Shown here piece after piece: positions 334 through 18,750 of a stretch of DNA of 41,617 nucleotides. This DNA is from Cyclobacteriaceae bacterium (lineage in GTDB: Bacteria; Bacteroidota; Bacteroidia; Cytophagales; Cyclobacteriaceae). Each line of letters starts with the position of its first letter. Within the stretch, counting starts at the first letter, position 1. Under the pieces are notes generated by a model. It made no database searches and was not told the origin of the DNA. It was given only the letters and a program-made list of their open reading frames with translations. The stretch spans positions 1 through 41,617 of the forward strand of contig JBJKSY010000070.1 of assembly GCA_046703645.1 (NCBI GenBank), written 5' to 3'. The position numbers and the translations under genes were made by a program.

Positions 334-783
334 ATGAAGAAAATTATTGGCGCTGTCATTATCCTTCTGGTGGTAATCCAGTTCATAAATTCAAAATTGC
401 CGGCGACATCAGCTCCCGGTCCCAAAGACGTTGCTGTAGTTGAAAAAATGCCGAACGATGTTAAGGAACTTATGGTCAAGTCCTGTTATGACTGCCATTC
501 CATGGAAACCAAATATCCATGGTACAGCCATATAGCTCCTATGAAATGGCTGGTAAAAAGCGACATCAATGAGGGCCGTCATCATGTTAACTTTTCCAAT
601 TGGGGAGATTACTCCGATAAGGAAAAGATGAAAAAATTTGATGATATTCATGAAGAGGTTAAAAAACACGATATGCCTCCCGGAAATTATCTCCTCATGC
701 ATAAGGATGCCCGGTTATCGGACAGTGACCGTCAGAAAATAGTTTCCTGGGCGGATTCAACTGCCGATAGTTACCTGAATTAA
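334..783 (+). CDS. Haem-binding-domain protein (Haem_bd family) with an N-terminal membrane anchor or signal
   Basis: 149 aa with a hydrophobic N-terminus (IIGAVIILLVVIQF). It carries a CYDCH CxxCH motif followed by YPWYSHIAPMKWLV, which is typical of the Bacteroidota/Planctomycetota haem-binding domain. It starts 6 nt after the previous stop. Confidence 0.65.
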   Translation: MKKIIGAVIILLVVIQFINSKLPATSAPGPKDVAVVEKMPNDVKELMVKSCYDCHSMETKYPWYSHIAPMKWLVKSDINEGRHHVNFSNWGDYSDKEKMKKFDDIHEEVKKHDMPPGNYLLMHKDARLSDSDRQKIVSWADSTADSYLN

Positions 784-828: not shown

Positions 829-968
829 ATTTTATACCTGCCAAGGTTCATATATTTATTCCTTAAATAATACTATGTTTCATATAATATATTGATCATT
901 ATTAAAGCATTATTCCTGGCAGCTTCCATTTGCCGGATTTTATTTATTCTGATCGCACACAGATATTT

Positions 969-2528
969 ATGAAAAAAATAATATTATGGATCGTTGCTCT
1001 TCTTCTATTGGTCCTGATCTCTTCAGGTTTATTTTTTTATAAGAATCTTTATAACCGTCATCCGGGATATTTATTAAAAATATCACTCAAAGATAATTAC
1101 CCCGGAACCCTGAAAGCAGGGTTCGCAGCAATTCCGATTACACCCTCAGTTCCGGACAGGTGGACAGACAGGAATCATGACGGGCAATATAATCCCAAAG
1201 ACGGGGATACTTATGAAGATCTGAATAATAACGGAATATTTGATGCAGTCTGGATGGCCGGATTCCAAAACCGCAGGCCGGCCAACGGTATTCATGATAA
1301 CCTTTGGGCCAGGACCATGGTCCTGGATAACGGGAATAAAAGGATAGCCATTGTAAGTGTAGATATTATCGGCTTCATGCATGATGATGTAATCGACGTC
1401 AGGAATAAGATCCCAAAAGACCTTCATATAACATATTCAATCATCTGTTCCACTCATACCCATGAGGGGCCTGATATGCTTGGTCTTTGGGGCAAAACTT
1501 ATCTGAAAAGCGGTGTGAACAGGGACTATATGAACTTTGTTAAGAGCAAGATCGTTGAATCCATAGTTTCGGCCACTATGTCGCTGCAACCGGCAAGTCT
1601 TATTTTCAGCCAGGATCTTAATGATGCCGACTCGCTTGTAGTTGACAGCCGGCGTCCAATTGTGAAGGATCCCGGGATCAGGGTTCTGAGAGCAATAGAC
1701 CCACAGGATCATCACACCCTGGGCACATTGGTAACCTGGGCTTGCCATCCGGAAATTTTATGGAGTCACAACCTTTTGATTACCAGTGATTTCGTTAACT
1801 ATGTCAGGCAGGGGATCGAAAACGGGATTTATGCCGGCGACAGCCTTGTGGAAAGTGGAACCGGTGGCGTTGCCGTCTACATTAACGGATGCATAGGAGG
1901 ATTAATGACTATGGACCCGGAAACTGCGGTTTATGACCCCTGGCTTCACAAGGATTTCAAAGAACCGTCTTTTGATAAGGCACGGTCACTCGGTTACCGG
2001 ATCGCTTCTATCGCCCTTCACTCAGAAACACGGGATGCCGACACAATAAATACTGCTTCTATGGCTCTTGTGGCAAGAACATTATCGTTACCTTTTAATA
2101 ATAAGTTATACCGGTTGGGAGCTGCCCTGGGTGTGATCGACAGAGGGATCAACGGCTGGTGGACAGTGCAATCGGAAGTAGCCGCGCTAAGGATCGGGCC
2201 TGCGACTTTTTTAACCATGCCCGGCGAAATGTATCCTGAAATTGTCAACGGGGGAATCGTGAATCCCACGGGAGCCGATTACTCTATTTCACCTATCGAG
2301 GTCCCTCCCATCCGATCCCTCATTTCATCAAAATATAAATTCGTTTTCGGATTGTCGAACGACGAAATCGGTTATATAATCCCTCAGAGCGAATGGGATG
2401 TAAAACCACCTTACCTCTATTCAGCCAAAGAATCACCTTATGGTGAAATTAATTCACTGGGACCCCAAACCGGCCCTTTGGTCTATACTGCACTGGCTGA
2501 TGTGATCAGGCAGCTACAGCAGCCCTGA
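969..2528 (+). CDS. Neutral/alkaline non-lysosomal ceramidase-like hydrolase, membrane anchored
   Basis: The ORF track starts at a TTG (930). The ATG at 969 gives MKKIILWIVALLLLVLISSGLFF, an N-terminal TM anchor. The CSTHTHEGPD motif resembles the THTHxGP zinc site of neutral ceramidases. Length is about 520 aa. Confidence 0.5.
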   Translation: MKKIILWIVALLLLVLISSGLFFYKNLYNRHPGYLLKISLKDNYPGTLKAGFAAIPITPSVPDRWTDRNHDGQYNPKDGDTYEDLNNNGIFDAVWMAGFQNRRPANGIHDNLWARTMVLDNGNKRIAIVSVDIIGFMHDDVIDVRNKIPKDLHITYSIICSTHTHEGPDMLGLWGKTYLKSGVNRDYMNFVKSKIVESIVSATMSLQPASLIFSQDLNDADSLVVDSRRPIVKDPGIRVLRAIDPQDHHTLGTLVTWACHPEILWSHNLLITSDFVNYVRQGIENGIYAGDSLVESGTGGVAVYINGCIGGLMTMDPETAVYDPWLHKDFKEPSFDKARSLGYRIASIALHSETRDADTINTASMALVARTLSLPFNNKLYRLGAALGVIDRGINGWWTVQSEVAALRIGPATFLTMPGEMYPEIVNGGIVNPTGADYSISPIEVPPIRSLISSKYKFVFGLSNDEIGYIIPQSEWDVKPPYLYSAKESPYGEINSLGPQTGPLVYTALADVIRQLQQP

Positions 2529-2609: not shown

Positions 2610-3866
2610 ATGATATCGCGAGAGAAAGTAAAAAATGTTCTTGATCACAAAGCTATAGACGGAATAGCTGTTGATTTTGGAGGCACCCCTGTCACAGGAA
2701 TTCATGTCCTGGCTATAGAACGGCTAAGGGATTATTATGGACTGGAAAAAAGACCGGTCAGGGTAACTGAACCGTACCAGATGCTGGGAAAGATCGAAGA
2801 AGATCTTGCCGAAATCATGGGAATAGATATTGCAGGCATAAACCCAAGGAATGATATGTTCGGCATTCCTGATGATGGAAAATATAAAGAATTCCGGACC
2901 TTCTGGAACCAGGTAGTTCTTATACCTGAAAAATTTAACACCCGTCTGGATCCCCATGGCGACCTGCTGGTATTTCCTGAAGGCGATACCTCCGTCAGGC
3001 CCAGCGGTAAAATGCCGAAGACCGGGTATTTTTTCGACGCAGTAATCAGGCAGGAACCCATCGAGGAAGACAAACTGAACCCGGAAGATAACACGGAAGA
3101 GTTTGGACTTATTACCGATAGTGATCTGGATTATTGGAAAAGGGAAATAAATAAAGTAAGTAACTCCGGGAAAGCGGTTGTTGCCAACTTCGGAGGAACG
3201 GGACTGGGAGATATAGCGCTGGTTCCCGGGTTAAACCTGAAGCGACCCAAAGGTATCAGGGATGTTGCCGAATGGTATATGTCGGTGATCATTCGCCCTG
3301 AATATATACATGCCATTTTCAATGAACAAACAGAAGTGGCCCTCATGAATCTTGAAAAAATCTATAAGGTTGTGGGCGACAATGTTGATGTAGCTTATAT
3401 CTGCGGAACTGATTTCGGCACACAGGATTCACAGTTTTGTTCCCTTGAAACCCTTCATGAATTATTCATCCCCTATTATAAGACTATAAACAGGTGGATA
3501 CATGAACATACTACCTGGAAGACCTTTAAACACTCCTGTGGCTCGGTCGAGCCTTTTCTTGACAGTTTTATCGATGCCGGTTTTGATATTCTGAACCCGG
3601 TACAGATAAATGCCAAAGGAATGGATCCCGTTCACCTGAAAAAAACATATGGTGACAGGATCGTCTTTTGGGGTGGTGGCATCGACACACAGGTAACTCT
3701 CCCTTTCGGGACACCTGCAGATGTTACAGTCCAGGTAAAAAATAATTGCCGCATATTTTCCGAAAATGGAGGATTCATATTTAATACCGTCCACAATATA
3801 CAGGCTAATGTTCCTGTTGAGAATATAGTGGCCATGATCAATGCCCTCCAGGAATTTAAAAACTGA
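2610..3866 (+). CDS. Uroporphyrinogen-decarboxylase (URO-D) family protein, long MtaA/CmuA-like form
   Basis: 418 aa with URO-D-like TIM-barrel sequence features. It has a KHSCGS (HxCG) zinc-type motif and a C-terminal GGFIFNTVHNIQ strand at the position of the MtaA GC motif. It is about 85 aa longer than the MtaA-like paralogue at 4950. Confidence 0.6.
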   Translation: MISREKVKNVLDHKAIDGIAVDFGGTPVTGIHVLAIERLRDYYGLEKRPVRVTEPYQMLGKIEEDLAEIMGIDIAGINPRNDMFGIPDDGKYKEFRTFWNQVVLIPEKFNTRLDPHGDLLVFPEGDTSVRPSGKMPKTGYFFDAVIRQEPIEEDKLNPEDNTEEFGLITDSDLDYWKREINKVSNSGKAVVANFGGTGLGDIALVPGLNLKRPKGIRDVAEWYMSVIIRPEYIHAIFNEQTEVALMNLEKIYKVVGDNVDVAYICGTDFGTQDSQFCSLETLHELFIPYYKTINRWIHEHTTWKTFKHSCGSVEPFLDSFIDAGFDILNPVQINAKGMDPVHLKKTYGDRIVFWGGGIDTQVTLPFGTPADVTVQVKNNCRIFSENGGFIFNTVHNIQANVPVENIVAMINALQEFKN

Positions 3867-3869
3867 AAT

Positions 3870-4775
3870 ATGAAAAAGCTTTCCCGATCCTCCATTATCC
3901 TCGAAGGGAATATTACACCGGTAAACGCCAATTACTACATGGAAAAAGGATTCCTGGTGGCCGACTCCCTGTTTCACCCGAGAGAACTCCAGGAAATTGC
4001 CGACGAAGCAACAACCATATTAAGAGGCGGGCGTGGCAAGGTGGAAGGGATCAGGAAAATTTCAGAAAAGGCTGATGATCTTTCCGTGATCGGGCAATAC
4101 AATGCCATTCATTTTCCGCATAAAATCTCCCCGCTTATTCTGAAATATATTAAACATCCCAGAGTTGTGAGAATCCTTAAAACCCTGATAAGCCCTAACA
4201 TCAAATGCATGCAAAGCATGTTTTTTGTCAAGGGACCCGGAAAACCGGGCCAGTCGTGGCACCAGGATGAATATTATATACCTACCCGTGACAGGTCTCT
4301 TATCGGAGCATGGATTGCCATTGACGATGCTGACATCGATAATGGTTGCCTTTGGGTCATTCCGGGATCCCACAGGGATGGAATTATCCGGCGGATTCTC
4401 CCCATGGAAAATAAGGAATACCGTGAACAATTTTCCTGTGAGTTATCTCCTTTTATCGAAGAAGATGCAATACCGGTTCAGGTGGAAAAAGGAAGCGTAG
4501 TTTTTTTCAACGGATACCTCTTTCACCGTTCTTTGCGCAACAAGACTGAAGATCGCTTCCGCAGGGCGCTTGTTTCACATTACATGAGTGCGGAATCCAT
4601 GCTGCCCTGGAACTGGGATGGAAGGATCGAATTAAAAGATGACATGAGGGAAATTCTCATGGTCAGCGGCAGGGACCCCTACGCCTATAAGGGAATCGAT
4701 AATATAACATATCCTTATCTCAGGGGTGAGTCTAAAAGCTTTGATGAACAGCAAAAGTCCGTCAGGAAAAAATGA
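3870..4775 (+). CDS. Phytanoyl-CoA dioxygenase (PhyH) family Fe(II)/2-oxoglutarate dioxygenase
   Basis: GQSWHQDEYY supplies the HxD iron ligands. GSVVFFNGYLFHRSLRN supplies the distal His and 2OG-binding Arg. It starts 3 nt after the upstream stop. Confidence 0.75.
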   Translation: MKKLSRSSIILEGNITPVNANYYMEKGFLVADSLFHPRELQEIADEATTILRGGRGKVEGIRKISEKADDLSVIGQYNAIHFPHKISPLILKYIKHPRVVRILKTLISPNIKCMQSMFFVKGPGKPGQSWHQDEYYIPTRDRSLIGAWIAIDDADIDNGCLWVIPGSHRDGIIRRILPMENKEYREQFSCELSPFIEEDAIPVQVEKGSVVFFNGYLFHRSLRNKTEDRFRRALVSHYMSAESMLPWNWDGRIELKDDMREILMVSGRDPYAYKGIDNITYPYLRGESKSFDEQQKSVRKK

Positions 4776-4949
4776 ATACAGGAAAAACCAGGAAATTGAA
4801 GATCTCAATATGCGGCATAAAGATTTTTAACGGGTTTGCTGAAATTGGTTAATATGGGCCACAGATCTGCAAATCCTGAGTAGTATCATGTTTTTTTAAT
4901 GACTAATTTTTAATATTTAAAACCGCAATATATCCCGGCTGGGATTTTT

Positions 4950-5948
4950 ATGAATAAAAAGCAAAAATTCAATCATTTGCTGAATGGGGAACGGCTGCAT
5001 GAATTCGTTTTTTTCAGGCCGATCCTTATGCATTTTGCTGCGCGTTTCAATCATAAGACCTACAGGGAATTTGCTACGGATTACAAGATTTTAGTAGACA
5101 GCAATATAAGGGCGATGGAATATTTTGACACAGACATGGTAAGTCTCATATCCGACCCCTACCGCGAAACTTCCGCTTTTGGCGCCAGTATCCGGTTTCC
5201 CAAAGAGGCTGTTCCCATCTGCGAGGCTCCCCTGATCCGGAAAATGCAGGATGTGGAGGATCTGAAAATTCCTGATGTTTATTCGAATGAAAGAACCCTG
5301 GACCGTATCAAAGCCGCCAGGGAATATGACCGTTTATTAAAAGGCAGCATACCGGTCAGTGGCTGGGTTGAAGGCCCCCTTGCTGAAGCCTGCGATCTGG
5401 CCGGCGTAAACGATATGCTGACAAACCTCCTGACAGATCCTGATTTTTCGAACAGGCTTCTTGATAAATGCATGATTACTGCCATGGATTTCTCAAGGGC
5501 CCAGATATTGGAAGGATGTGATCTTATCGGTATCGGCGACTCAATCTGCAGCCAGGTGGATAAAGACACCTACGACCTGTATGTGAAGGACCGACATATT
5601 CAGCTCATTGATTTTATCCACCGGAACGGTGCAGCCGTCAAGCTGCATATATGCGGTAATATTACACACCTGCTCCCGTCACTGTCGGAGCTGGGTTCCG
5701 ACATTATTGACCTGGACTGGAATGTAGACATGGAATATGCTTACCAGGTGCTTGGACCGGAAATTGTCAGGGGAGGAAATATCAATCCCGTGGAATTACA
5801 ATATGCCACATCAGAAAGGATCTCTTCCATGACATCTTCCCTGCTTGAAAAGGAAAGCGGCCGTAAATACCTGCTCGCCGCCGGATGTGAAATTACGGTC
5901 AATACTCCCTATGAGAATTTAATGGCTATGAGAAAACCAATGAAATAA
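4950..5948 (+). CDS. MtaA/MtbA-like methylcobamide methyltransferase (URO-D family, zinc dependent)
   Basis: 332 aa. The HxC...C zinc motif is complete: H233-I-C235-G in KLHICGN and C313 in LLAAGCEI. This spacing matches the HxCx(n)C motif described for methanogen MtaA. The N-terminus is of the LNGE type typical of the family. Confidence 0.7.
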   Translation: MNKKQKFNHLLNGERLHEFVFFRPILMHFAARFNHKTYREFATDYKILVDSNIRAMEYFDTDMVSLISDPYRETSAFGASIRFPKEAVPICEAPLIRKMQDVEDLKIPDVYSNERTLDRIKAAREYDRLLKGSIPVSGWVEGPLAEACDLAGVNDMLTNLLTDPDFSNRLLDKCMITAMDFSRAQILEGCDLIGIGDSICSQVDKDTYDLYVKDRHIQLIDFIHRNGAAVKLHICGNITHLLPSLSELGSDIIDLDWNVDMEYAYQVLGPEIVRGGNINPVELQYATSERISSMTSSLLEKESGRKYLLAAGCEITVNTPYENLMAMRKPMK

Positions 5949-5958
5949 ATTTTTTACT

Positions 5959-6627
5959 ATGAACGAACTGCTGGAAAAAATTGCACATTGCGTTGAATTC
6001 GGGAAAGTCAATAAAACTTCCCCCTATCCTCCTGACATGAAAGGCCAGGAAGGTGCAGATGAACTTACCAAACAAGCACTAGAGGCAAATATTGCAGCCG
6101 ACGATATCCTTAAAAAAGCCCTCGTCCCTGCAATGGAAAAAGTTGGAATAAAATTCAGGGAGAATAAGATTTTTGTACCCCAGGTACTGATGTCCGCCAA
6201 AGCAATGAATACTTCTATAACTCACCTGAAGCCGTTTTTCCAGAGTGGAGAAGTAAAAAGAAAAGGAACTTTTATCATCGGGACTGTCGCCGGAGACCTT
6301 CATGATATTGGGAAAAACCTGGTTGCCATGATGGTGGAAGGCAATGGTTTTGAAGTAGTAGATCTGGGTACTGATGTAGGCGCCGAACAATTCCTGAAAG
6401 CAATAAATGATCACCCGGGAAGCTTTATGGGAATATCCGCCTTGCTGACCACTACCATGGTCAACATGGAAGGAATTGTAAGGGAAGTGAAAGGAAACTT
6501 TCCTGAAACAAGAATTGCCATTGGAGGCGCACCTGTAAATGAAGATTTCAGAAAAAGAATAGGTGCTGATTTTTATGCGCCTGATCCCCAGGGTATCGTC
6601 GAATATCTGAACGCCCAGGCTGGTTGA
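5959..6627 (+). CDS. Corrinoid (cobalamin-binding) protein, MtaC/MtbC/MetH-B12-domain type
   Basis: An N-terminal helical cap is followed by a Rossmann B12-binding domain. The DxHxxG motif is GDLHDIGKN (nt ~6295-6312), with a downstream SALLTTT motif. Length is 222 aa. Confidence 0.85.
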   Translation: MNELLEKIAHCVEFGKVNKTSPYPPDMKGQEGADELTKQALEANIAADDILKKALVPAMEKVGIKFRENKIFVPQVLMSAKAMNTSITHLKPFFQSGEVKRKGTFIIGTVAGDLHDIGKNLVAMMVEGNGFEVVDLGTDVGAEQFLKAINDHPGSFMGISALLTTTMVNMEGIVREVKGNFPETRIAIGGAPVNEDFRKRIGADFYAPDPQGIVEYLNAQAG

Positions 6628-6693
6628 CATTCTTCTAATAAGAAATATTGAAAAAGGCTTTTTCAACTTTTCATAAAATTTAATCTTATTGTA

Positions 6694-7599
6694 ATGGCAA
6701 GTATTCTCAAGGCACTGCAGGCAAAAAAAATATTAATCTCCGATGGAGCCTGGGGCACTTTTTTTCAGTTAAAGGGTTTAAAGCCCGGCGAGTGTCCTGA
6801 ATTATGGAACATTGAACATCCTGATGAAGTCCTCGACATTGCCAGAAGTTATATCCTTGCCGGATCCGATATCATAGAAACCAACAGTTTCGGGGGATCT
6901 TCCATTAAACTGGAGGGTTACGGCTTGAAAGAAAGGGCTTTTGAAATCAATAAGGCGGCAGCATCCATTTCCAGGAAAGCAGCAGGCAGGGAACATCTTG
7001 TTCTCGGTTCCATTGGGCCAACGGGCAAGCTTCTGATGATGGAAGAAATATCCGAGGCTCAGTTGTATGAATCAATCAGGGAACAGGCCCTGGCCCTTGA
7101 AGATGGTGGTGCCGATGCATTGGTTGTTGAAACCATGACCGACCTGCAGGAAGCTCTTATTGCAGTCAGGGCTGCCCGGGAAAATACAGGTCTTGAGGTA
7201 GCCTGCACAATGACTTTCGACAAAACGGTTTCAGGTGAATTCCGCACCATGATGGGTGTAAGCCCGGCAGAAATGACTCAGGCACTTGTTGAAGCGGGTG
7301 TAAACATGCTGGGCACCAATTGCGGCCATGGAATGAAAGATATGGAAGGGATCGTAAAGGAGATCAGAAAAGTCGATGAAAAAATTCCCGTCCTTGTTCA
7401 TGCCAATGCCGGGATCCCGGTATACCATGAGGGTAAAACCCTTTACCCGGAAAGTCCGGAAATAATGGCGGGCTATATAAACCCGCTAATTACAGCAGGC
7501 GCAAATATCGTGGGCGGATGTTGCGGTACCACACCGGAGCATATTCACAAAATCAAAGAAGTAGTTTATAAACGCAAGAGCAATAATCCCAATGGCTGA
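6694..7599 (+). CDS. Homocysteine S-methyltransferase domain protein (MetH N-terminal module type)
   Basis: ILISDGAWGT at the N-terminus, ETNSFGGS, a zinc-ligand Cys in GTNCGHG, and the GGCCGTTPEHI Cys pair. Length is 301 aa. Confidence 0.85.
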   Translation: MASILKALQAKKILISDGAWGTFFQLKGLKPGECPELWNIEHPDEVLDIARSYILAGSDIIETNSFGGSSIKLEGYGLKERAFEINKAAASISRKAAGREHLVLGSIGPTGKLLMMEEISEAQLYESIREQALALEDGGADALVVETMTDLQEALIAVRAARENTGLEVACTMTFDKTVSGEFRTMMGVSPAEMTQALVEAGVNMLGTNCGHGMKDMEGIVKEIRKVDEKIPVLVHANAGIPVYHEGKTLYPESPEIMAGYINPLITAGANIVGGCCGTTPEHIHKIKEVVYKRKSNNPNG

Positions 7600-8530
7600 T
7601 AAATCGTATATTCCGGTTGTGATAATCACCGGATTTCTGGGAAGCGGGAAAACGACACTGATCAGGAGAGTGATTGAAGGTTATGCCACCAGGTACAGGG
7701 TTGGAGTAATTATAAATGAATTTGCTCCCGCCGGAGTAGACGGGATAACATTAAAGGAAATACCACAGAAATTCATACTGAAGGAAATCAATAATGGAAG
7801 CATTAGCTGCATGTGCCGTCAGGAGGATCTCGTAGAGGCGCTGACCAGGATGATAAATGACCACGACCCTGACCTTATACTGATAGAAACTTCCGGCCTG
7901 TCCGATCCCCTGGGTGTTATCGAATATTTCAGCCAGGAAAACCTTAAAGGAAAAGCGTACCCTGCCTATACCTACTGCCTCATTGATGCAGCCAATTTTT
8001 CAAGGGTATCGGAAATTTCAGATATATCACTTCACCAGATCCTGGCAGCCGATGAACTCATCATCAACAAATCGGATCTTTCCAATCCTGGCTCCCTGGA
8101 GGAATTATCGGAAGAATTAAAAAAGATCAACCCGATGGCCGGTATTACAATAACAGATCATGCCGATGCTGACCTGGCTATGGGTTTATCCTGTGCGGAA
8201 AATAAGGGACCTGTCGCAAAATATGACAAGCTCCCTGCCGATCCCGACCACCTCTGCCCTGCCCTTCAGGTAGGTGTGATCAGGACCGCCAGGGAAATTT
8301 CCCCTGAAAAAGCCTATGATTTCCTGAATGAGTTCCTTCCGGTCACCCTTCGAATAAAAGGATACCTGAAGCTGAACAACGGGCACTCAATGGCTGTGCA
8401 GGCAGTATATGATAACCTTGTATCTGAAGAATTGTCCTACAACGAAAACTCTTCAGTCCTGGTTGCTATAGGAAATGATTTCAATATCAGGGATTTTAAT
8501 GAAAGATTCCGTGAATATTGCGAAGCCTGA
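7592..8530 (+). CDS. CobW/HypB/UreG-class G3E family GTPase (COG0523-like)
   Basis: P-loop GFLGSGKTTL, Walker B LIETSGLSDP, and NKSD specificity motif. The C-terminal region is CobW_C-like. The start overlaps the upstream stop by 8 nt (ATGGCTGA). Confidence 0.85.
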   Translation: MADKSYIPVVIITGFLGSGKTTLIRRVIEGYATRYRVGVIINEFAPAGVDGITLKEIPQKFILKEINNGSISCMCRQEDLVEALTRMINDHDPDLILIETSGLSDPLGVIEYFSQENLKGKAYPAYTYCLIDAANFSRVSEISDISLHQILAADELIINKSDLSNPGSLEELSEELKKINPMAGITITDHADADLAMGLSCAENKGPVAKYDKLPADPDHLCPALQVGVIRTAREISPEKAYDFLNEFLPVTLRIKGYLKLNNGHSMAVQAVYDNLVSEELSYNENSSVLVAIGNDFNIRDFNERFREYCEA

Positions 8531-8531
8531 T

Positions 8532-9227
8532 ATGGATTATAATTCTTTTCATTTCAGATTCCCCGAACTTGGCCTTACCAGGGAAAAGATTGCAAGGGTA
8601 ATGGGTTACGACGATGGTATCGCTCCGGAACCCTTCGATGACATCATTGAGGAAGTGCTGGATGCAGCGCCCGATTATTGTGATATAACAGGAGGTTATG
8701 TCTTAAGGGAAAATATCCATATCGACAGGATCAATCAAAGTATCAGGATAGATGATGTAACCTTCGATCTTAAGAGAATTATTACCAACCAGCTCAGGAA
8801 ATCAGAGCATGTTGCTTTATTCCTCTGCACAGCCGGTGCCGGGATAGGTGAATGGTCAGGGAAGCTGATGAAGTCGGGTGACATGATCAAGGGATATGTT
8901 GTCGATGTAACCGGCTCGGAAACAGTGGATGCCGCCATGGATATCATCCAGGACGGTATGGAAAAGGAATTAAAGGTTAAGGGACTTAAGATTACCGAAC
9001 GGTACAGCCCCGGTTATTGCCAATGGCAGGTAAGTGAACAAAAAAAGCTTTTCAGCTTCTTTCCTGAAAATTTCTGCGGTGTCAGGTTATCCCCTTCATC
9101 ACTGATGTATCCCATTAAATCGATCAGCGGTATTATCGGAATCGGCAAAGAGGTTAAACGAAAAGGATATTCCTGCAATTTATGTGATATGAAGGATTGC
9201 TTATACAGAAGGAAAAGACACGTGTAA
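8532..9227 (+). CDS. Stand-alone vitamin-B12-dependent methionine synthase activation (AdoMet reactivation) domain protein
   Basis: I prefer the ATG at 8532, 1 nt after the CobW stop, over the track start at 8475. ERYSPGYCQW and SISGIIGIG resemble MetH activation-domain motifs. The C-terminus carries a CNLCDMKDC cluster. Confidence 0.65.
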   Translation: MDYNSFHFRFPELGLTREKIARVMGYDDGIAPEPFDDIIEEVLDAAPDYCDITGGYVLRENIHIDRINQSIRIDDVTFDLKRIITNQLRKSEHVALFLCTAGAGIGEWSGKLMKSGDMIKGYVVDVTGSETVDAAMDIIQDGMEKELKVKGLKITERYSPGYCQWQVSEQKKLFSFFPENFCGVRLSPSSLMYPIKSISGIIGIGKEVKRKGYSCNLCDMKDCLYRRKRHV

Positions 9228-9231
9228 TTTA

Positions 9232-9435
9232 TTGAGTGATTGAGTGATTGAGTGATTGAGTGATTGGGGATTGAGTGATTGGGGATTGAGTGATTGGAGA
9301 TTGAGTGATTGGCGATTGAGTGATTGGCGATTGAGTGATTGGGGATTGAGTGATTGGCGATTGAGCGATTGGCGATTGAGCGATTGGCGATTGAGCGATT
9401 GGCGATTGAGCGATTGGCGATTGAGCGATTGGGGA
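9232..9435. repeat. Intergenic tandem repeat: 3 extra 8-bp half units (TTGAGTGA) followed by 12 copies of a 15-bp unit TTGAG[T/C]GATTGG[G/A/C]GA
   Basis: Read directly from the sequence. The units are head to tail with no spacers. Variation is confined to unit positions 6 and 13, and variants are clustered: T-type units come first and C-type units last. Confidence 0.95.
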
Positions 9436-9576
9436 TTTGAAGTTATTTTAAAACACCTCAAACAAAATATTTAATCAGGAGTTAAACAGTATAAGTAACT
9501 CTGGAGGTATCTTTTTTCATTTTAAGGAGTTGCGAAGCACGACATTTAAATTTTCGACCATAATTCATTTAGCGAT

Positions 9577-10599
9577 ATGAAATACAAACAACTAGGGAAC
9601 ACGGGTGTCCTGGTTTCAGAATTATGCCTTGGGGCAATGACATTCGGAGGGAAAGGATTCTGGGAGGCCATAGGCCGTTTGCCGCAGGAGGAAGTAAATC
9701 AATTGGTTAAAACTTCCCTGGATTCGGGGATCAATTTCATCGACACTGCTAATGTTTACTCAGAGGGCCAGTCGGAGATTCTGCTTGGGAAAGCATTGAC
9801 GGATCTGGGTATAAACCGGCAGAAAGTGGTAGTTGCCACCAAGGTGCGGGGGCGTGTCGGTGATGGTGCCAACCAGGTAGGCCTGTCAAGGCTTCATATT
9901 GCCGATTCGGTAAATGACAGCCTGCAGCGTTTAGGGATCGATCATATCGATCTCCTTTATATTCATGGTGTTGATCCGATCACGCCCCTGGAAGAAACCA
10001 TGCGTGGCCTTGAAGATGCGGTAAGGTCGGGAAAGGTGCGATATCTCGGGATAAGCAATCATCCGGCCTGGATGGTAGTGAAAGCCAATTCAATTGCCGA
10101 AAAAATGGGATGGACAAAATTTGTGGCCCTTCAGAATTATTATACTATCGCAAGCAGGGACCTGGAAAGGGAGATAATTCCAATGGCTAAAAGCGAGGGT
10201 CTTGCCCTGATGCCATGGAGCCCGCTTGCCGGTGGTTTCCTTTCGGGAAAATATACCAGGGAAAAAGCCAGGGCAGGGAACAGTCGACGTGATGAATTTG
10301 TTTTTCCGCCCATAGATAAGGAAAAGGCCTTTTACATTATCGATGCAATGGCCATCGTTGCCAAAAATCACGAAGTATCTGTAGCCCAGGTAGCACTGGC
10401 ATGGATGCTCAGGAAAGAAGGTGTGACCAGTATCATTATAGGTGCCAAAACCAATGAACAGCTATTGGATAATATAGCCTCCACAGGCCTGGACCTGTCA
10501 GAAGAAGAGATGAGCCGACTGGATTCACTGAGTGCCATGAAACCCGAATACCCGGGATGGATGGTCGAAAGACAATCCCAGGGAAGAATGCCTTCCTGA
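9577..10599 (+). CDS. Aldo/keto reductase family oxidoreductase
   Basis: 340 aa. LGAMTFGG, the FIDTANVYSEGQSE motif, and IIIGAKTNEQL near the C-terminus form a typical AKR (Tas/YajO-like) pattern. Confidence 0.9.
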   Translation: MKYKQLGNTGVLVSELCLGAMTFGGKGFWEAIGRLPQEEVNQLVKTSLDSGINFIDTANVYSEGQSEILLGKALTDLGINRQKVVVATKVRGRVGDGANQVGLSRLHIADSVNDSLQRLGIDHIDLLYIHGVDPITPLEETMRGLEDAVRSGKVRYLGISNHPAWMVVKANSIAEKMGWTKFVALQNYYTIASRDLEREIIPMAKSEGLALMPWSPLAGGFLSGKYTREKARAGNSRRDEFVFPPIDKEKAFYIIDAMAIVAKNHEVSVAQVALAWMLRKEGVTSIIIGAKTNEQLLDNIASTGLDLSEEEMSRLDSLSAMKPEYPGWMVERQSQGRMPS

Positions 10600-10628
10600 T
10601 AAATATGACAAACGATATTATTTTGCCT

Positions 10629-10662
10629 GGCCCGGCGCAGTAACCGGGTCATTTTATTTTTT
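10629..10662 (+). terminator. Possible weak terminator after the AKR gene
   Basis: GCCCGG...CCGGGT short hairpin followed by CATTTTATTTTTT. The stem is only about 6 bp. Confidence 0.3.
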
Positions 10663-10783
10663 CAATAATTAGCTTTATATGAAAGAGCATCCTGTAAAAG
10701 GATTATAATCCGTTAGTGATCCCGGAATAAATTCGAAAATTGATTTCTTTTGATAAAAGAATAAGTCATTTTTTGCCGAACCT

Positions 10784-11164
10784 ATGAATAAAAGAGCTGA
10801 CAATGAAGCCCCTTTTGCCATAAATCGCTGGGGCTGGAAATTTCATCATATCGGAATTCCTACAAATTATAAAAAGAAGAATGAAAAGTATTTATCCGGC
10901 TTCAGGATGTATGTTTCAGGTTTCAGCACAAGCCCTTACGGAATTGAATGGATGAGATTTGAAAAGGGCAGCACTGTTCCCATTCTGATAAGGAAAGTTC
11001 CACATATAGCTTTCGAGGTGAAAAATATTGAACATGAAATTAAAATCCATAAACTGAAAGTGATATCCCCGGCAGGTTCTCCGTCAGAAGGTGTCAGGTC
11101 AGCCATGATCGAGCATGACGGGGCGCCCGTGGAATTGATAGAATTTGATTTTAATAAAGCCTGA
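10784..11164 (+). CDS. Small VOC (glyoxalase/dioxygenase-fold)-like protein
   Basis: 126 aa. FHHIGIPT and VPHIAFEV are His-containing strands and PVELIEF lies at the C-terminus. These resemble the paired beta-alpha-beta-beta-beta modules of the VOC superfamily. Confidence 0.45.
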   Translation: MNKRADNEAPFAINRWGWKFHHIGIPTNYKKKNEKYLSGFRMYVSGFSTSPYGIEWMRFEKGSTVPILIRKVPHIAFEVKNIEHEIKIHKLKVISPAGSPSEGVRSAMIEHDGAPVELIEFDFNKA

Positions 11165-11214
11165 AAATAATCAACAAGGACGCTTAGAATTAGAAATCGT
11201 TCCGAATTGTAACA

Positions 11215-12012
11215 ATGGTGACTCCTTTTAAAACTTTATTATTCGACCTTGATGAAACATTGATGGAGGAATGGAACTCCGCGAAATATTGTATTATAAA
11301 TACTTTTTCCCGGTTGAACACTGGCACAGATCCTGAAACATTCGTTGATATCCTTATTGAAGAAGCACGGATTCTCTGGCATGCTACACCTGTATATCCG
11401 TTTTGCCGGAGTGTGGGCATTAGTTCGTGGGAAGCTCTATGGGCGGACTTTGACGGTGCAAATGAGAATTTCGAATATTTAAGGGGTTATGGAAAAGAAT
11501 ACCGGACGCGGGCATGGCTAAATGCTTTACACAGAACAGGTAATACTGACCTGTCTGCGGCCCGGGAATTAAGTGAATATTTTAAGAAATACAGAAATAC
11601 CAGGCATATTCTTTTTCAGGACGCCCTACCCTGCCTTCAGAAATATAAGAGCCGGTTTAAGTTTGGATTGGTCACTAATGGTGCCCCTGATATTCAACAA
11701 AAAAAAATTAAAGGCGGAAATCTGGCGCATTGGTTCGACAAGGTTATTATTTCCGGTGATTATGGTAAAGGTAAACCTGACCCTGAGATCTTCCTTGAAC
11801 TTGTCGACAGGCTGGGCAGCAATTCCGGGAATACATTAATGATCGGTGATAGCCTTCAAACGGATATTGCCGGCTCAAAAAAAGCAGGGATCATGAATAT
11901 CTGGTTAAACCGTAACGGAAAACCCAATGATATCCCGGATTTAAGCCCAGGACATGAAATCCGGAATCTTCTTGAGCTTGACGGCGTATTAGAGAATTCT
12001 TATAATTGTTGA
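11215..12012 (+). CDS. HAD-superfamily hydrolase (subfamily IA-like)
   Basis: LLFDLDETL is the DxDxT nucleophile motif. LVTNG, GKGKPDP and MIGDSLQTDIAG are motifs II-IV. Confidence 0.85.
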   Translation: MVTPFKTLLFDLDETLMEEWNSAKYCIINTFSRLNTGTDPETFVDILIEEARILWHATPVYPFCRSVGISSWEALWADFDGANENFEYLRGYGKEYRTRAWLNALHRTGNTDLSAARELSEYFKKYRNTRHILFQDALPCLQKYKSRFKFGLVTNGAPDIQQKKIKGGNLAHWFDKVIISGDYGKGKPDPEIFLELVDRLGSNSGNTLMIGDSLQTDIAGSKKAGIMNIWLNRNGKPNDIPDLSPGHEIRNLLELDGVLENSYNC

Positions 12013-12050
12013 ATTGAAAATCAAATTCTCACCTTTATATAAAAAGTGCC

Positions 12051-12758
12051 ATGAATGAAGATAAAATATGCCTCGTCACCGGGGCAAGCAGCGGCATGGG
12101 GTTTGCAATAGCTGAATTCCTGAAAAATGAACATTACCAGGTGATTGTCACCGCGCGAAGAAAAGAACGGCTCATGCAACTGGGTTTCGAAGAAGAAGAT
12201 GTAATTGCCGGGGATCTGAATTCAACTGAATTCCAGGATTCAATTGAAAAATATATTTTTAACAAATACGGGAAATGTGATTTCTTGTTTAATTGTGCCG
12301 GGATCATCGAGGTGGGAACCATCGAAGAGATCGATATCGATATTATGGCATCGATGATCCGGTTAAATGTTGAATCCACCTTCCGCATAACCTACAAATT
12401 CCTGAAACATTTCAAAGAGCAGGGTTACGGCCATATTATAAATATTTCCAGTGTCCTGGGGACCAAGGTAAGGGCAACTGCAGGAGCTTATGCCGCTACC
12501 AAGTATGCTGTCGAGGCTTTGTCGGAAGCCCTGCGTATGGAGTTGACAGGAACACCGATCAAGATCTCATGCATTGAACCCGGACTGGTCCTCACCGAAT
12601 TTCATAACCGCTGGAAAGTTCATCCCCGGGAAAGTATGCACATTACAGAACCATTATCTGTAAATGATATAGTTAAATCGGTAAAATATATAATGGAGCA
12701 GCCCGACCATGTGAGAATCCCCAGGTTGATGATCCTACCCAGGGACCAGAATACCTGA
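12051..12758 (+). CDS. Short-chain dehydrogenase/reductase (SDR) family oxidoreductase
   Basis: VTGASSGMG cofactor motif, NCAG, and the catalytic YAATKYAV (YxxxK) motif. Confidence 0.9.
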   Translation: MNEDKICLVTGASSGMGFAIAEFLKNEHYQVIVTARRKERLMQLGFEEEDVIAGDLNSTEFQDSIEKYIFNKYGKCDFLFNCAGIIEVGTIEEIDIDIMASMIRLNVESTFRITYKFLKHFKEQGYGHIINISSVLGTKVRATAGAYAATKYAVEALSEALRMELTGTPIKISCIEPGLVLTEFHNRWKVHPRESMHITEPLSVNDIVKSVKYIMEQPDHVRIPRLMILPRDQNT

Positions 12759-12938
12759 ACCGGAAGCAATGAATTTCACACCGGAATATCCGGTCCGTGA
12801 GTTTTTGTCCGGTCGGAATTATAAATTATGTTAAATATCAGCTCCAGGGCCCCTTCTATGACCTGTGTCATAAAATATTTTATCCCGGAATCTGTTGTAA
12901 ATAAAAACATCCGGAATAATCTTTAATACAGGAAGCAT

Positions 12939-13325
12939 ATGGCGAAGGCAATGAGGCAAATAAGATTTCACAGGGTGAATCCTTTTATTCCTGTCAGGAA
13001 TTTAAAACAGACACTTGACTTTTAGCGCGATAAACTTGGATTCTATGATGAGTGGACATGGAACGATTCCGACGGCGGCATACAGCGGGATGACATGCGA
13101 CTGATGTTCAGTGAGGAACCGGCATACAGTAATTCTGTGAACAACCAGGATTTTAAATATTTCCTGATGTGGTTTGTGGATGACCTGGAAGATGTCTTTA
13201 CTGAGTTCAAGAACAGGAATATCGATTTTCAATACGGGATCGAAGTCAAACCATGGGGACTTCGTGAATTCGGGATCCGCGATCCGAACGGATACCTGAT
13301 CCGCGTTGCAGAAAATTATTTGTAG
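12939..13325 (+). pseudogene. Glyoxalase/bleomycin-resistance (VOC) family gene interrupted by an in-frame TAG
   Basis: The ATG at 12939 is in frame with the listed ORF 13095-13325. The translation reads MAKAMRQIRFHRVNPFIPVRNLKQTLDF*RDKLGFYDEW..., with TAG at 13023-13025. The VOC consensus has Tyr at that position (FY-x-x-LGF). The reconstructed length of about 128 aa is typical for the family. Confidence 0.6.
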
Positions 13326-13488
13326 AGTTAAAGGCGAATCGTATATTCTTCCGGCATGATAAACCAGGAAGTGATCACATATTATTTGTAATTTTTTTAT
13401 TAAAAATTAATCCTTTCCCGATAAAATGATCATCCGGAATTGGGATTCATACAGCTATTTTATATTTTAATATCTTACCGGGATTTCA

Positions 13489-13923
13489 ATGACATCACAG
13501 GCGAAAGACTCACAATCCGAAATTACCACTGATAAATCAAGGCTGGATATAAACCTTATTCACAACTTCCTTTCCCGGGAATCCTACTGGGCGAAAGGCC
13601 GCAGTCTGGATACCGTCAGGAGATCCATTGATAACTCATTATGTTTCGGGGTTTTTGTCAACCACCAGCAGGTGGGCTTTGCCAGGGTGGTAACGGATTA
13701 TGCGGTATTTGCCTGGGTCATGGACGTCTTTGTCCTGAAAGAATACAGGGGCCGCGGTTACGGGAAAAAACTGATGGAATTCATCGTTCACCATGAAAAA
13801 CTGCAAAACCTGAAACGCTGGGGACTTGGAACCGAAGATGCCCACGGACTATACGAAAAATTCGGGTTCACGCCGCTTACGAAATCGCAAAATATGATGG
13901 AAAAAATTTCCGGGAAAAAATAA
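13489..13923 (+). CDS. GNAT family N-acetyltransferase
   Basis: 144 aa. The acetyl-CoA-binding motif is RGRGYGKKLMEF (R/Q-x-x-G-x-G/A), and the GFARV strand precedes it. Confidence 0.8.
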   Translation: MTSQAKDSQSEITTDKSRLDINLIHNFLSRESYWAKGRSLDTVRRSIDNSLCFGVFVNHQQVGFARVVTDYAVFAWVMDVFVLKEYRGRGYGKKLMEFIVHHEKLQNLKRWGLGTEDAHGLYEKFGFTPLTKSQNMMEKISGKK

Positions 13924-14026
13924 TCTGACTTTCCCTTTTCAAATTCATATAAGGTAACCGGAGAGTTTTTCACAAATTGAATGATATCCGGCTGACTGCC
14001 GGGATAAATACCTGAGATTATAGTCT

Positions 14027-14563
14027 TTATTCCGGAACTTTTTCCAATAATCTTTTCTTAGAAGGGATCAGGGTTCTGAATTCATCGAGCAGGATAGCCG
14101 ATCTGTCGGTAACTTCTTCCCTGTTGCCTATCGTCACTGCCAGGTCCATACGGATACCTCCTATAAAATTCCCATCATAATCCTTAAGCGGCCTGATGAT
14201 AACATAATAGGGATCCTTTTTGAGCGGTTTCCTGAAATATATCTTCCCTTTATCTATTACTTTGCGTTCACGGTGCGTACATTCTGACCCCGTGAAAATA
14301 CTGTCAGTGGAAGCCACCACCCTGCAACCATTTCTATCAGTTAAAAATATCCTGAATGCTCCCACTTCCGGGTGGGTTCCGACAAACTCATCAATGATCT
14401 GTTGCGCAAAAATTTCACCAGCCGGTTCAGGTTGTATTGAAAGCTGCTGAGCGTGTAACCCTGACGGAAACAATAAAATTAAAATTGTTGCCGTCAAAAT
14501 AAGTATACTATTTATTCGGTCCGTTAAATGTCGGCTGGGTCCAGGTAAATGATCCTGTTCCAT
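14027..14563 (-). CDS. Hypothetical secreted protein (start uncertain)
   Basis: The open frame extends to 14605 (TTG). ATG candidates are at 14578 and 14563. A hydrophobic segment ILILTATILILLFPSGLHAQQ looks like a signal peptide. I recognise no confident family. Confidence 0.4.
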   Translation of the reverse strand: MEQDHLPGPSRHLTDRINSILILTATILILLFPSGLHAQQLSIQPEPAGEIFAQQIIDEFVGTHPEVGAFRIFLTDRNGCRVVASTDSIFTGSECTHRERKVIDKGKIYFRKPLKKDPYYVIIRPLKDYDGNFIGGIRMDLAVTIGNREEVTDRSAILLDEFRTLIPSKKRLLEKVPE

Positions 14564-15047
14564 CGGGGACTCTTGCATAGGATAATTCTTGTGTCTGTGC
14601 ACCAAAGGTCACTTCATCGATAACCGCTTTGTCAGGAGCGGAAAGGATGACCATTTCACCTTCCGAAGATAGCTTGAAATCTGCATGCAGACCTTTCTGA
14701 TTAAGGTCTTTGTCGGCCCAGATAATCAGATAACTTTTCGCTCCGATTTTGGTCCCCTTGGGAAAAGACCATTTTGTCGGCTCTTTTTTGGAATCGCTTA
14801 GGTAATACCCTGAAAGGTCAATATCCTTATCCGATAAATTGTACAGCTCAATCCAGTCATCATACTGGCCATCCTGGTCCTTAACGGTAGTAGTATTTTT
14901 TGACATCAGTTCATTGATGACAAGAACCCCTTTCAGGTTGGATGTAGGATTTTCCTTCGCACAGGAAACTCCAAGGGCCACGGTCAACAGGACAAATGGG
15001 AAGAAGATATTCCGGCCGGAAACCGCAGTATTAGATAAAAATTTCAT
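14508..15047 (-). CDS. Lamin-tail-domain (LTD) lipoprotein
   Basis: The ATG at 15047 gives MKFLSNTAV...LTVALGVSCAKE, a lipobox Cys. VINELMSKNT...DDWIELYNLSDKDIDLSGYYLSD is the characteristic LTD core. Confidence 0.75.
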   Translation of the reverse strand: MKFLSNTAVSGRNIFFPFVLLTVALGVSCAKENPTSNLKGVLVINELMSKNTTTVKDQDGQYDDWIELYNLSDKDIDLSGYYLSDSKKEPTKWSFPKGTKIGAKSYLIIWADKDLNQKGLHADFKLSSEGEMVILSAPDKAVIDEVTFGAQTQELSYARVPDGTGSFTWTQPTFNGPNK

Positions 15048-15221
15048 AGTGTGATTTTTTAAGAAATCAGCCCTCAAAGGTATTTAAATAGTACGATCCT
15101 GAAAGGATAAATACGAAAATAAATAGAACATCAGGAATGACCCGGGATATTTTGTAAATTGGGATACGCGAACGACCAGGGTTGATAATTTTTGTCCCGG
15201 AATCATTTTTAATTATTTTTT

Positions 15222-16358: not shown

Positions 16359-16377
16359 CTTTTTTATATTTTCAATT

Positions 16378-16899: not shown

Positions 16900-16986
16900 T
16901 CCATAATATTTAATTCAGTTCAATAAATCATAAATATCTGTATATCAATCACTTGATAATAAAATAATTATTTTTATAAAAATATT

Positions 16987-17000: not shown

Positions 17001-17032
17001 TATATTATTAAATAAATAATTACATTCGGGTC

Positions 17033-18702: not shown

Positions 18703-18750
18703 TATAACCAAATATCCCATTTTAACCCGGGCAGACTACCCGATATCAAC

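Follow-up and report, generated by a model that had tools for sequence, protein, structure and literature searches.

A putative cobalamin-dependent methyl relay with URO-D-family proteins and MetH-like modules on separate polypeptides in a Cyclobacteriaceae bacterium

The DNA stretch described here, termed the window, is 41,617 nt of contig JBJKSY010000070.1 from a Cyclobacteriaceae bacterium (assembly GCA_046703645.1). Near its left end lie seven co-directional genes for two URO-D-family proteins, a corrinoid protein, a homocysteine S-methyltransferase, a MetH-type reactivation protein, a CobW-like GTPase and a PhyH-family dioxygenase. We consider it moderately probable that this locus is a multi-component cobalamin-dependent methyl relay, i.e., a methionine synthase minus the folate module, which is fed by URO-D-family methyltransferases in a hub-and-spoke layout. 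An initial annotation made from the letters alone had suggested a methyl relay from a non-folate donor via a corrinoid protein to homocysteine, and this idea is supported by the absence of a pterin-binding module, the conserved neighbourhood and the lack of a characterised homologue. Listing of open reading frames (ORFs) in the window and a Pfam scan of their translations gave the following genes.

2610–3866, plus strand: long URO-D-family protein, 418 aa (Pfam URO-D 5e-12, residues 217–415 only)
3870–4775, plus strand: PhyH-family Fe(II)/2-oxoglutarate dioxygenase (Pfam PhyH 6.4e-39; H131-x-D133 and a distal His)
4950–5948, plus strand: MtaA-like short URO-D protein, 332 aa (Pfam URO-D 7.5e-54, full length)
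5959–6627, plus strand: corrinoid (B12) carrier (Pfam B12-binding_2 2e-18 and B12-binding 2e-23)
6694–7599, plus strand: stand-alone homocysteine S-methyltransferase (Pfam S-methyl_trans 7e-70)
7592–8530, plus strand: CobW/COG0523-family G3E GTPase (Pfam cobW 7.5e-40 and CobW_C)
8532–9227, plus strand: free-standing MetH-type reactivation protein (Pfam Met_synt_B12 4e-7, 30 bits)

The genes form two blocks set apart by a 174-nt gap (4775 to 4950), and the junctions within the blocks are, in order, a 3-nt gap, a 10-nt gap, a 66-nt gap, an 8-nt overlap and a 1-nt gap. The last gene, listed as an ORF at 8475–9227, most likely starts at ATG 8532, one base past the CobW stop codon (8528–8530), because all 15 homologues align from that Met; the 1-nt final junction depends on this start. 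The ORF listing thus reproduced the coordinates and junctions of the initial annotation, each of its seven domain assignments was matched by Pfam above threshold, and the motifs it had noted (HSCG, H233-x-C235...C313, GDLHDIG, NCGH and GGCCGT) were found at the same residues.

Three of the gene products correspond to modules of MetH. The homocysteine barrel of MetH binds homocysteine through zinc and methylates it from methylcobalamin. The homocysteine methyltransferase of the window aligns over residues 8–295 with residues 10–291 of Thermotoga maritima MetH (PDB 1Q7M; 2e-53) and keeps the DGAxGT, ETNxFG, ETxxD, NC and GGCCGTTPEH motifs of that barrel, including the zinc ligands Cys210, Cys276 and Cys277 (NCGH at 209 and GGCCGT at 274). 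Its score against the NCBIfam model PRK07534 (MtgE/Bhmt-like stand-alone subunit) is 6e-75 and 252.6 bits, below the cut-off of 338. This protein is proposed to be the methyl-corrinoid:homocysteine methyltransferase (MT2) that would make methionine.

The corrinoid protein consists of a helical cap and a Rossmann domain. It carries GDLHDIG at 112–118, and the motifs D113-x-H115-x-x-G118 and S160-A-L162 (SxL) indicate His-on binding of B12. It belongs to the group annotated as "methyltransferase cognate corrinoid protein" and matches the NCBIfam models MtgC-like (4.6e-54) and pyl_corrinoid (7e-48), both under cut-off; among all cluster proteins, no NCBIfam model was reached at or above cut-off.

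The MetH activation domain and T. maritima TM0269 remethylate Co(II) with S-adenosylmethionine (AdoMet) and an electron donor. TM0269 (PDB 1J6R) is by sequence the best structural relative of the reactivation protein (6e-8 for the sequence alone and 2.5e-13 for a profile of its family), and the activation domain of human MetH (2O2K) is matched weakly. The RxxxGY motif of the AdoMet-binding activation domain is kept as R157-YSPG-Y162, and the protein is thus proposed, as a putative AdoMet binder, to remethylate the inactive Co(II) corrinoid protein reductively. In addition, Cys163, Cys182 and C215-x2-C218-x4-C223 are invariant in 16 homologues and are not in TM0269. The family comprises 4568 representative clusters, all stand-alone and of about 230 aa; the C-terminal CxxCxxxxC is present in 147 of the 150 top representatives, and PGYCxW and NFCG are also conserved in the family. 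This Cys set may bind a metal or an Fe-S centre, and the Cys tail of the family suggests an undescribed site of this type.

The division of these three MetH modules among separate polypeptides, as first noted in the initial annotation, is thus borne out by the barrel alignment, the DxHxxG and SxL motifs and the TM0269 match. The same holds for the lack of a pterin-binding module: Pfam Pterin_bind (PF00809) matched none of the non-overlapped window ORFs of at least 100 aa, either URO-D ORF included, and no pterin-binding domain was found in about 25 related clusters, precomputed Pfam lists included. The N-terminal half of the long URO-D protein has no Pfam match, and a pterin domain hidden there was considered and rejected: the AlphaFold2 model (predicted local distance difference test score, pLDDT, 70; predicted template modelling score, pTM, 0.76) consists of one MtaA/UroD-like barrel with an inserted segment, not a pterin-binding fold. 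The best PDB match of this model is MtaA (4AY7; E 2.5e-10, TMt 0.65), with uroporphyrinogen decarboxylases second.

In URO-D methyltransferases such as MtaA, MtsA and OdmB/VdmB, a zinc site activates the heteroatom, and methyl is swapped with Co(I)/methyl-Co(III) corrinoid proteins. The zinc site of the MtaA/MtbA/MtsA type (H-x-C...C) is complete in the short URO-D protein and partial in the long one. In the latter, His308 and Cys310 of the HSCG motif at residue 308 and His395 are invariant across 20 homologues, and His395 aligns with the second zinc Cys of the MtaA-like paralogues; a His308-Cys310-His395 metal site is therefore predicted. In L053, L054, L057 and L075 (labels with the prefix L denote related loci) its gene adjoins the corrinoid gene. 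The long URO-D protein is proposed to be a substrate:corrinoid methyltransferase (MT1), probably with an O-methylated sugar as substrate. In the short URO-D protein, H233-I-C235 and C313 align with the LHICGN and GC zinc-site motifs of MtaA (4AY7). Its match to NCBIfam MtaA/CmuA (1e-32) is under cut-off, and the best scores against MtaA/MtbA/MtsA-type models are 118 and 114 bits, compared with cut-offs of 244 and 235. It is proposed to be a second substrate:corrinoid methyltransferase; alternatively, it might transfer methyl from the corrinoid to a thiol.

Homologues of both proteins are numerous (more than 8000 protein clusters at E<=1e-10 for the long URO-D family and 2876 homologues at E<=1e-20 for the short one) and are publicly annotated as "uroporphyrinogen decarboxylase family protein", "methyltransferase" or "hypothetical protein". 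That both might be true uroporphyrinogen decarboxylases was rejected on account of the methyltransferase-type metal-site motifs and the adjoining corrinoid genes.

The URO-D proteins of the related clusters fall into four subfamilies: the long proteins (His-Cys-His), 338-aa kin (His-Cys...His), the short MtaA-like proteins (His-Cys-Cys) and proteins with a fusion to a pair of thioredoxin-like domains. Of these, the window encodes the long and the short type only. The fusion proteins (538–539 aa; L002 12787–14403, L085 13034–14653, L089 8309–9928 and L090 8252–9871) contain a URO-D barrel (FVCGH...GC) and two Thioredoxin_3 domains with a CAPC motif. The fusion gene is present in most of the relatives' hubs (see below) and missing from the window, where tblastn found no remnant of it. 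The fusion protein is a candidate for a second acceptor enzyme, for redox repair or for a general donor module.

The two remaining proteins would have accessory roles. The CobW-like GTPase, for which YjiA is the best PDB match, keeps the P-loop GFLGSGKTT. In all 11 cluster CobW homologues, however, the canonical GCxCC is replaced by NGS(V/I)(F/S)C(V/M)C (NGSISCMC in the window), which defines a subfamily; its members are at 7592–8530 of the window and in L002, L010, L011, L042, L053, L069, L085, L087, L089 and L090. These GTPases diverge faster (32–36% identity) than the products of neighbouring genes (55–80%). Thirteen of 28 clusters have the gene, each time between the homocysteine methyltransferase gene and the reactivation gene, and its product is proposed to be an accessory cofactor or metal chaperone. 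The PhyH gene starts 3 nt after the long URO-D gene, and its product has PHYHD1 and PhyH as best PDB matches. Orthologues (63–75% identity) occur only in the nearest relatives (L005, L006 and L008) and in no other cluster; PhyH is thus a lineage-specific add-on. It is possible that PhyH performs an O2-dependent step on the same substrate or product.

Conservation was assessed from the long URO-D protein, a scan of one genome per species giving at least 595 stretches, the best 80 of which were used for the locus comparison. These 80 loci include Cytophagales (Roseivirgaceae and Cyclobacteriaceae; 64–74% identity), which are the closest kin of the window, Bacteroidales (Prolixibacteraceae, Mariniphaga, Draconibacterium and others; about 60%), and single metagenome-assembled genomes (MAGs) of Planctomycetota, Bryobacteraceae and Chlorobiota. 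The long URO-D family is common among Bacteroidales of sediment, soil and the digestive tract. When the window proteins were mapped onto all fetched loci, a corrinoid gene (62–81% identity) was found in 28, in which the other genes accompany it as follows.

Homocysteine methyltransferase: 23 of 28 loci, one strand
Long URO-D protein: 21 of 28 loci, one strand
Reactivation protein: 19 of 28 loci, one strand
Short URO-D protein: 17 of 28 loci, one strand
URO-D–thioredoxin fusion: 15 of 28 loci, one strand
CobW GTPase: 13 of 28 loci, one strand

The homocysteine methyltransferase gene adjoins the corrinoid gene in all the loci counted for it, and two of the five loci lacking it are contigs that end early. 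A typical operon starts with a GntR/sugar-binding regulator and continues with the genes for the long URO-D protein, the short URO-D protein, the corrinoid protein, the URO-D–thioredoxin fusion, the homocysteine methyltransferase, CobW and the reactivation protein. Dozens of genomes repeat the gene order and strand at 35–80% identity in differing flanks, and a chance cluster is ruled out by this conservation. In the Bryobacteraceae locus L073, a long URO-D gene is accompanied by corrinoid, homocysteine methyltransferase and short URO-D genes at only 36–43% identity, which shared descent alone would not readily explain and which speaks for functional coupling. The expectation that the neighbourhood is conserved thus held for its recurrence in Cytophagales, Bacteroidales and one Bryobacteraceae MAG, but not for the seven genes as a unit. 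CobW and the short URO-D protein are dispensable in some clusters, and minimal hubs hold the genes for the corrinoid protein, the homocysteine methyltransferase and the reactivation protein and nothing else of the cluster, so that these three are the conserved core.

Homocysteine-making genes lie 3–9 kb from the hub, on the opposite strand, in one Bacteroidales lineage: homoserine O-acyltransferase (HTS), a Cys_Met_Meta_PP enzyme and aspartokinase are encoded at 17129–20803 of L089, 15732–19406 of L093 and 9944–13618 of L094.

The minimal hubs, which are without URO-D genes, and the proximity of three hubs to these homocysteine-making genes would suit a housekeeping split methionine synthase, in which the methyltetrahydrofolate (methyl-THF) subunit is encoded elsewhere or is replaced by a URO-D paralogue, e.g., the URO-D–thioredoxin fusion, the other URO-D proteins being side inputs. 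The PRK07534 match of the homocysteine methyltransferase agrees with this, and the split synthase of Ruegeria and Phaeobacter keeps its pterin subunit at a separate locus (PMC12478193). Such a synthase is nevertheless unlikely here: no pterin-binding gene is present in the about 25 clusters or their 10-kb flanks, and the hubs have sugar-type regulators and are embedded in glycoside-hydrolase loci. As to replacement by a paralogue, we know of no member of the URO-D fold that binds folate.

The relay fed by URO-D proteins is favoured by the distribution of the long URO-D genes outside the hubs. In 60 of the 80 loci, the gene is solo, i.e., no corrinoid, homocysteine methyltransferase or reactivation gene lies within 10 kb. 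Sugar genes abound among the immediate neighbours of these solo genes, with GFO_IDH_MocA oxidoreductases and ROK kinases (8 each), sugar transporters, alpha-L-fucosidases, sulfatases and GH3, as well as hexokinase, 3-keto-disaccharide hydrolase and GH120. The genes for GFO_IDH_MocA, the long URO-D protein and ROK kinase recur as a trio; on checking, seven of eight downstream ORFs tested were ROK kinases and both upstream ORFs tested were GFO_IDH_MocA. Homologues of the short URO-D protein (66% identity) likewise stand alone in apiosidase/apionate-lactonase/GH36 sugar loci.

The hubs themselves have a similar setting. In some clusters, GH36-like, GH120-like, fucosidase, hexokinase, GH5-like and xylose-isomerase-like genes lie between the long URO-D and corrinoid genes. 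The surroundings are GH2/GH20/GH92 or GH3/GH42/GH95/rhaM loci, and the regulators are of the GntR plus sugar-binding type or AraC. Solo and clustered copies can coexist in one genome: a Prolixibacteraceae contig of 6,507,791 bp has a solo long URO-D gene at 3.33 Mb (L065) and a hub at 5.16 Mb (L089), the latter in the order AraC regulator, corrinoid protein, URO-D–thioredoxin, homocysteine methyltransferase, CobW and reactivation protein, and a second MAG has both a solo and a clustered long URO-D gene (L066 and L082). Most simply, one hub of corrinoid protein, homocysteine methyltransferase and reactivation protein would be shared by many substrate-specific URO-D proteins, their substrates being methylated sugars released by the neighbouring glycosidases. 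The genomic context of the relatives points to O-methyl sugars as donors, a matter on which the initial annotation made no choice.

This context also bears on a salvage of methyl-sulfur or methyl-selenium compounds, as has been proposed for mlp clusters, in which a His-Cys-Cys URO-D protein would demethylate a methylthio or methylseleno compound (candidate donors are methanethiol, dimethyl sulfide, methylthio-sugars and methylmercaptopropionate (MMPA)), with methyl passing to methionine and the S or Se moiety being freed. The short URO-D protein has the exact His-Cys-Cys site of MtaA, which is typical of S/Se-methyltransferases (PMC10418091), and, as in mlp clusters, several URO-D paralogues accompany a corrinoid protein in the absence of a folate methyltransferase. 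However, the long URO-D site is His-Cys-His, the neighbouring genes are related to sugars and not to sulfur or selenium, and the reactivation protein is MetH-type and not Ram/RACE. Moreover, the carriers include aerobes, as Cu/Zn superoxide dismutase (SOD) and PhyH in the window indicate, whereas mlp clusters are restricted to obligate anaerobes. Taken together, S/Se salvage is quite unlikely.

Based on these features, the URO-D-fed relay would proceed in three steps. First, the two URO-D proteins would move methyl from a non-folate donor onto the Co(I) corrinoid protein; the donor would most likely be an O-methylated sugar freed from a glycan in the case of the long protein, and an O- or S-methyl compound in the case of the short one. 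Second, the homocysteine S-methyltransferase would take methyl from methyl-Co(III) to make methionine and restore Co(I), as its strong homology to the MetH barrel suggests. Third, after oxidation of the corrinoid to Co(II), the reactivation protein would bind it again and restore methyl-Co(III) with AdoMet and a reductant, in view of the homology to TM0269 and the MetH activation domain. Such a cofactor-repair step suits an aerobe, because the window also encodes a Cu/Zn SOD and an O2-dependent dioxygenase. The CobW-like GTPase might serve as a cofactor- or metal-loading chaperone, and PhyH would be a lineage-specific extra. At the level of the genome, one hub would serve several URO-D proteins, some encoded beside it, as in the window, and others scattered in sugar-utilisation loci. 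Methyl flow to homocysteine is what we infer from sequence, and the corrinoid-to-homocysteine half of the model is held with somewhat higher confidence than the whole.

The opposite direction has also been considered. MtaA and MtbA physiologically transfer methyl from a corrinoid to a thiol, and the short URO-D protein keeps the MtaA site; in a biosynthetic system, the corrinoid protein would be loaded, e.g., from AdoMet via the reactivation protein, and the URO-D proteins would methylate a sugar hydroxyl or a thiol, the homocysteine methyltransferase merely balancing the pool. But methylation of an alcohol from methylcobalamin is unfavourable both thermodynamically and mechanistically, known sugar O-methylation is performed by AdoMet-dependent enzymes, and the neighbouring genes are catabolic (glycosidases, kinases and transporters). 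A biosynthetic role is thus very improbable.

Several points weigh against the relay from methylated sugars to methionine. Homology is the basis for both the acceptor and the direction of methyl flow. The Met_synt_B12 match of the reactivation protein is weak (cut-off 25 bits), and the added Cys motif shows this protein to be more than a copy of the MetH domain. A pterin-binding partner encoded elsewhere in the genome, beyond the 41.6-kb window, is possible. The short URO-D protein has a His-Cys-Cys zinc site, which Kountz and Balskus tie to S/Se-methyltransferases and not to O-demethylases (PMC10418091). With homocysteine as the sole methyl sink, flux would be limited, and bulk catabolism would need homocysteine regeneration. 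Finally, with a ceramidase-like hydrolase, haem-binding proteins and an aldo-keto reductase, the surroundings in the window do not obviously resemble a polysaccharide-utilisation locus, so that the sugar inference is drawn mainly from the Bacteroidales relatives at about 60% identity. Because of this local context, an O-methyl sugar as donor for this particular window is proposed only tentatively, at somewhat less than an even chance.

Sugar methyl ethers, such as 6-O-methyl-galactose, 2-O-methyl-fucose, 2-O-methyl-xylose and 4-O-methyl-glucuronate, block glycan catabolism. It may be speculated, with still more reserve, that sugar methyl ethers are demethylated in Bacteroidota, and in a few phyla besides, by a network that depends on B12 and not on oxygen, in which many substrate-specific URO-D methyltransferases encoded across glycan-utilisation loci pass methyl via a shared corrinoid protein and a MetH-derived module to methionine and the Cys-rich reactivation protein and the non-canonical CobW sustain the system in air. 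In such a network, methyl ethers of glycans would be a source of the methionine methyl group, and glycan degradation would be B12-dependent. No oxygen-independent route of sugar demethylation was described in the literature searched. If the model holds, it would provide oxygen-independent demethylation chemistry for sugars and an added folate-independent route to methionine, tie polysaccharide degradation to the availability of vitamin B12, and extend the split methionine synthase as a catabolic demethylase hub to a second phylum with different enzyme families. The system is widespread and unannotated, and two uncharacterised subfamilies, the Cys-tailed reactivation protein and the CobW GTPase without CxCC, are flagged by this analysis.

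Two further genes upstream of the cluster are context genes.

334–783, plus strand: small Haem_bd (PF14376) protein (Pfam 3.9e-45; CYDCH motif at residue 51)
930–2528, plus strand: secreted or membrane-anchored hydrolase with a weak likeness to the N-terminal domain of neutral/alkaline ceramidase (Pfam Ceramidase_alk 1.2e-10)

The Haem_bd gene forms a tandem pair with a preceding copy (1–279) that is cut off by the window start. It is conceivable that the pair supplies electrons for corrinoid reactivation, and the tie of this gene to the system is uncertain. Tandem small Haem_bd genes (PF14376, CxxCH) are also located upstream of the cluster in the two closest relatives (L005 2926–3851 and L006 4966–5840). 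A strong terminator-like hairpin (800–826) lies between the Haem_bd gene and the next gene. The ceramidase-like hydrolase probably starts at a Met at about 969; homologues (51–69% identity) are encoded directly upstream of the long URO-D gene in the Cytophagales relatives L002, L005 and L010–L012, and no terminator-like site was found between its gene and 2610. This hydrolase may release a methylated substrate.

A scan of the whole window with Rfam found no cobalamin riboswitch and no other RNA family, sigma-70 promoter matches were at background (22 found, 21 expected), and the Bacteroidota -7 motif TAnnTTTG was missing from all five intergenic gaps checked.

Downstream of the cluster, the aldo-keto reductase gene (9577–10599) was rejected as a member of the unit, as it adjoins the cluster in no relative. 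A tandem array at 9238–9437, which starts 11 nt past the stop codon of the last cluster gene, consists of a 15-nt unit (GATTGAGTGATTGGC) in 13.3 copies with 95% matches and perfect register. It is the only tandem array of the window, is not in any of 94 related loci, and is located at the left edge of a segment where synteny with relatives breaks. In L002, L009, L010 and L011, a DUF4493/Lamin Tail Domain (LTD) gene (minus strand) and a sulfatase gene (plus strand) directly follow the reactivation gene; the window orthologues of both are at 27001–29792, with a 17.8-kb segment (9228–27000) in between. This segment encodes the aldo-keto reductase, HAD, SDR and GNAT proteins, a BlaR1/M23-BlaI pair, Lnt, the Cu/Zn SOD, a leucine-rich repeat protein, an S10 peptidase and a beta-helix protein. 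In the same segment, the minus-strand ORFs 14027–14605 and 14508–15077 overlap, the second with a Lamin Tail Domain and the first without a Pfam match, and may be one frameshifted gene or reflect a mis-called start.

The statement of the initial annotation that it knew of no characterised system with exactly this composition in Bacteroidota agrees with the searches made: full-text searches on corrinoid/URO-D/homocysteine/Bacteroidetes, methylated-sugar demethylases, polysaccharide-utilisation loci with URO-D and folate-independent synthases found no paper on this Bacteroidota system, and neither the full-text literature nor NCBIfam gave a characterised close homologue of the cluster proteins. 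Comparison is therefore with systems that share parts of the composition. Among the features of MetH, the homocysteine barrel, the B12 domain and the activation domain are matched, and the pterin barrel and the single polypeptide (three ORFs here) are not. Like MetH, including the split TM0268 and TM0269 of T. maritima, the locus has a homocysteine barrel with a three-Cys zinc site and a B12 domain with DxHxxG, and, like TM0269, a free-standing reactivation protein with RxxxGY. Unlike MetH, it has no methyl-THF barrel, each module is its own polypeptide, and URO-D methyltransferases and a CobW-like GTPase are added; unlike both MetH and TM0269, the reactivation protein has the extra Cys set (C163, C182 and CxxCxxxxC). 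Compared with COG0523/CobW proteins, the GTPase has the P-loop and is without the GCxCC metal motif.

Anaerobic O-demethylases (Odm/Vdm of Acetobacterium dehalogenans, those of Desulfitobacterium hafniense and Mto of Methermicoccus) follow the same logic, in that several substrate-specific MT1 proteins, some of the UroD superfamily, share one corrinoid protein and one MT2. Their features are a pterin-binding MT2 that forms methyl-THF or methyl-tetrahydromethanopterin, an ATP-dependent RACE/RamA Fe-S activator and phenyl methyl ether substrates. In contrast, the window has a homocysteine methyltransferase as its proposed MT2 and a context suggestive of sugars; Pfam scans of the window and related clusters found neither Pterin_bind nor a DUF4445/RamA-type protein. 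Type 1 mlp clusters similarly combine several MtaA-like URO-D paralogues with a corrinoid protein and have no clustered folate methyltransferase, but are found in obligate anaerobes, mostly Firmicutes, with a Ram/RACE activator, a link to S/Se metabolism and no homocysteine methyltransferase (PMC10418091). Compared by gene content, the window has the URO-D paralogues and the corrinoid protein and is without a Ram/RACE protein.

The core methionine synthases MesA and MesB likewise make methionine from a methyl-corrinoid protein without folate (Price et al. 2021, PMC7857596). MesA and MesB are, however, MetE-like barrels, whereas the catalyst of the window is a MetH-type S-methyl_trans protein with its own corrinoid protein and reactivation factor. 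The P450 sugar O-demethylases of marine Bacteroidota remove methyl ethers from algal sugars, as is proposed here, and their genes also lie beside glycan-degrading genes (PMC6292453). That route is oxidative and O2-dependent and releases formaldehyde (PMC6292453), whereas the system of the window would be O2-independent and would keep methyl in methionine.

The nearest precedent in logic is MtgBCDE of Ruegeria and Phaeobacter. In Ruegeria pomeroyi, MtgC is common to betaine methyltransferase and a split methionine synthase (PMC12478193), and in this aerobe the single corrinoid protein was reported in 2025 to be genetically required for both glycine-betaine demethylation and methionine synthesis (PMC12478193); Phaeobacter inhibens has a three-part split MetH (PMC12478193; Price et al.). 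The likeness to MtgBCDE, as judged by profile scores, lies in a stand-alone corrinoid protein and a stand-alone homocysteine-binding subunit in aerobic bacteria. MtgBCDE includes an MttB-family betaine methyltransferase, the essential pterin-binding MtgD, and RamA plus DUF1638 for reactivation. The window, by contrast, has proposed donor enzymes of the URO-D family, a MetH-type reactivation protein and no clustered pterin subunit, in a context of sugar catabolism; MtgD-type pterin domains, the MttB family and RamA/DUF1638 were not found in Pfam scans of the window or related clusters. A corrinoid protein shared by a demethylase and a split methionine synthase is thus known in principle from Ruegeria, where it was demonstrated with protein families other than those of the window locus (PMC12478193).

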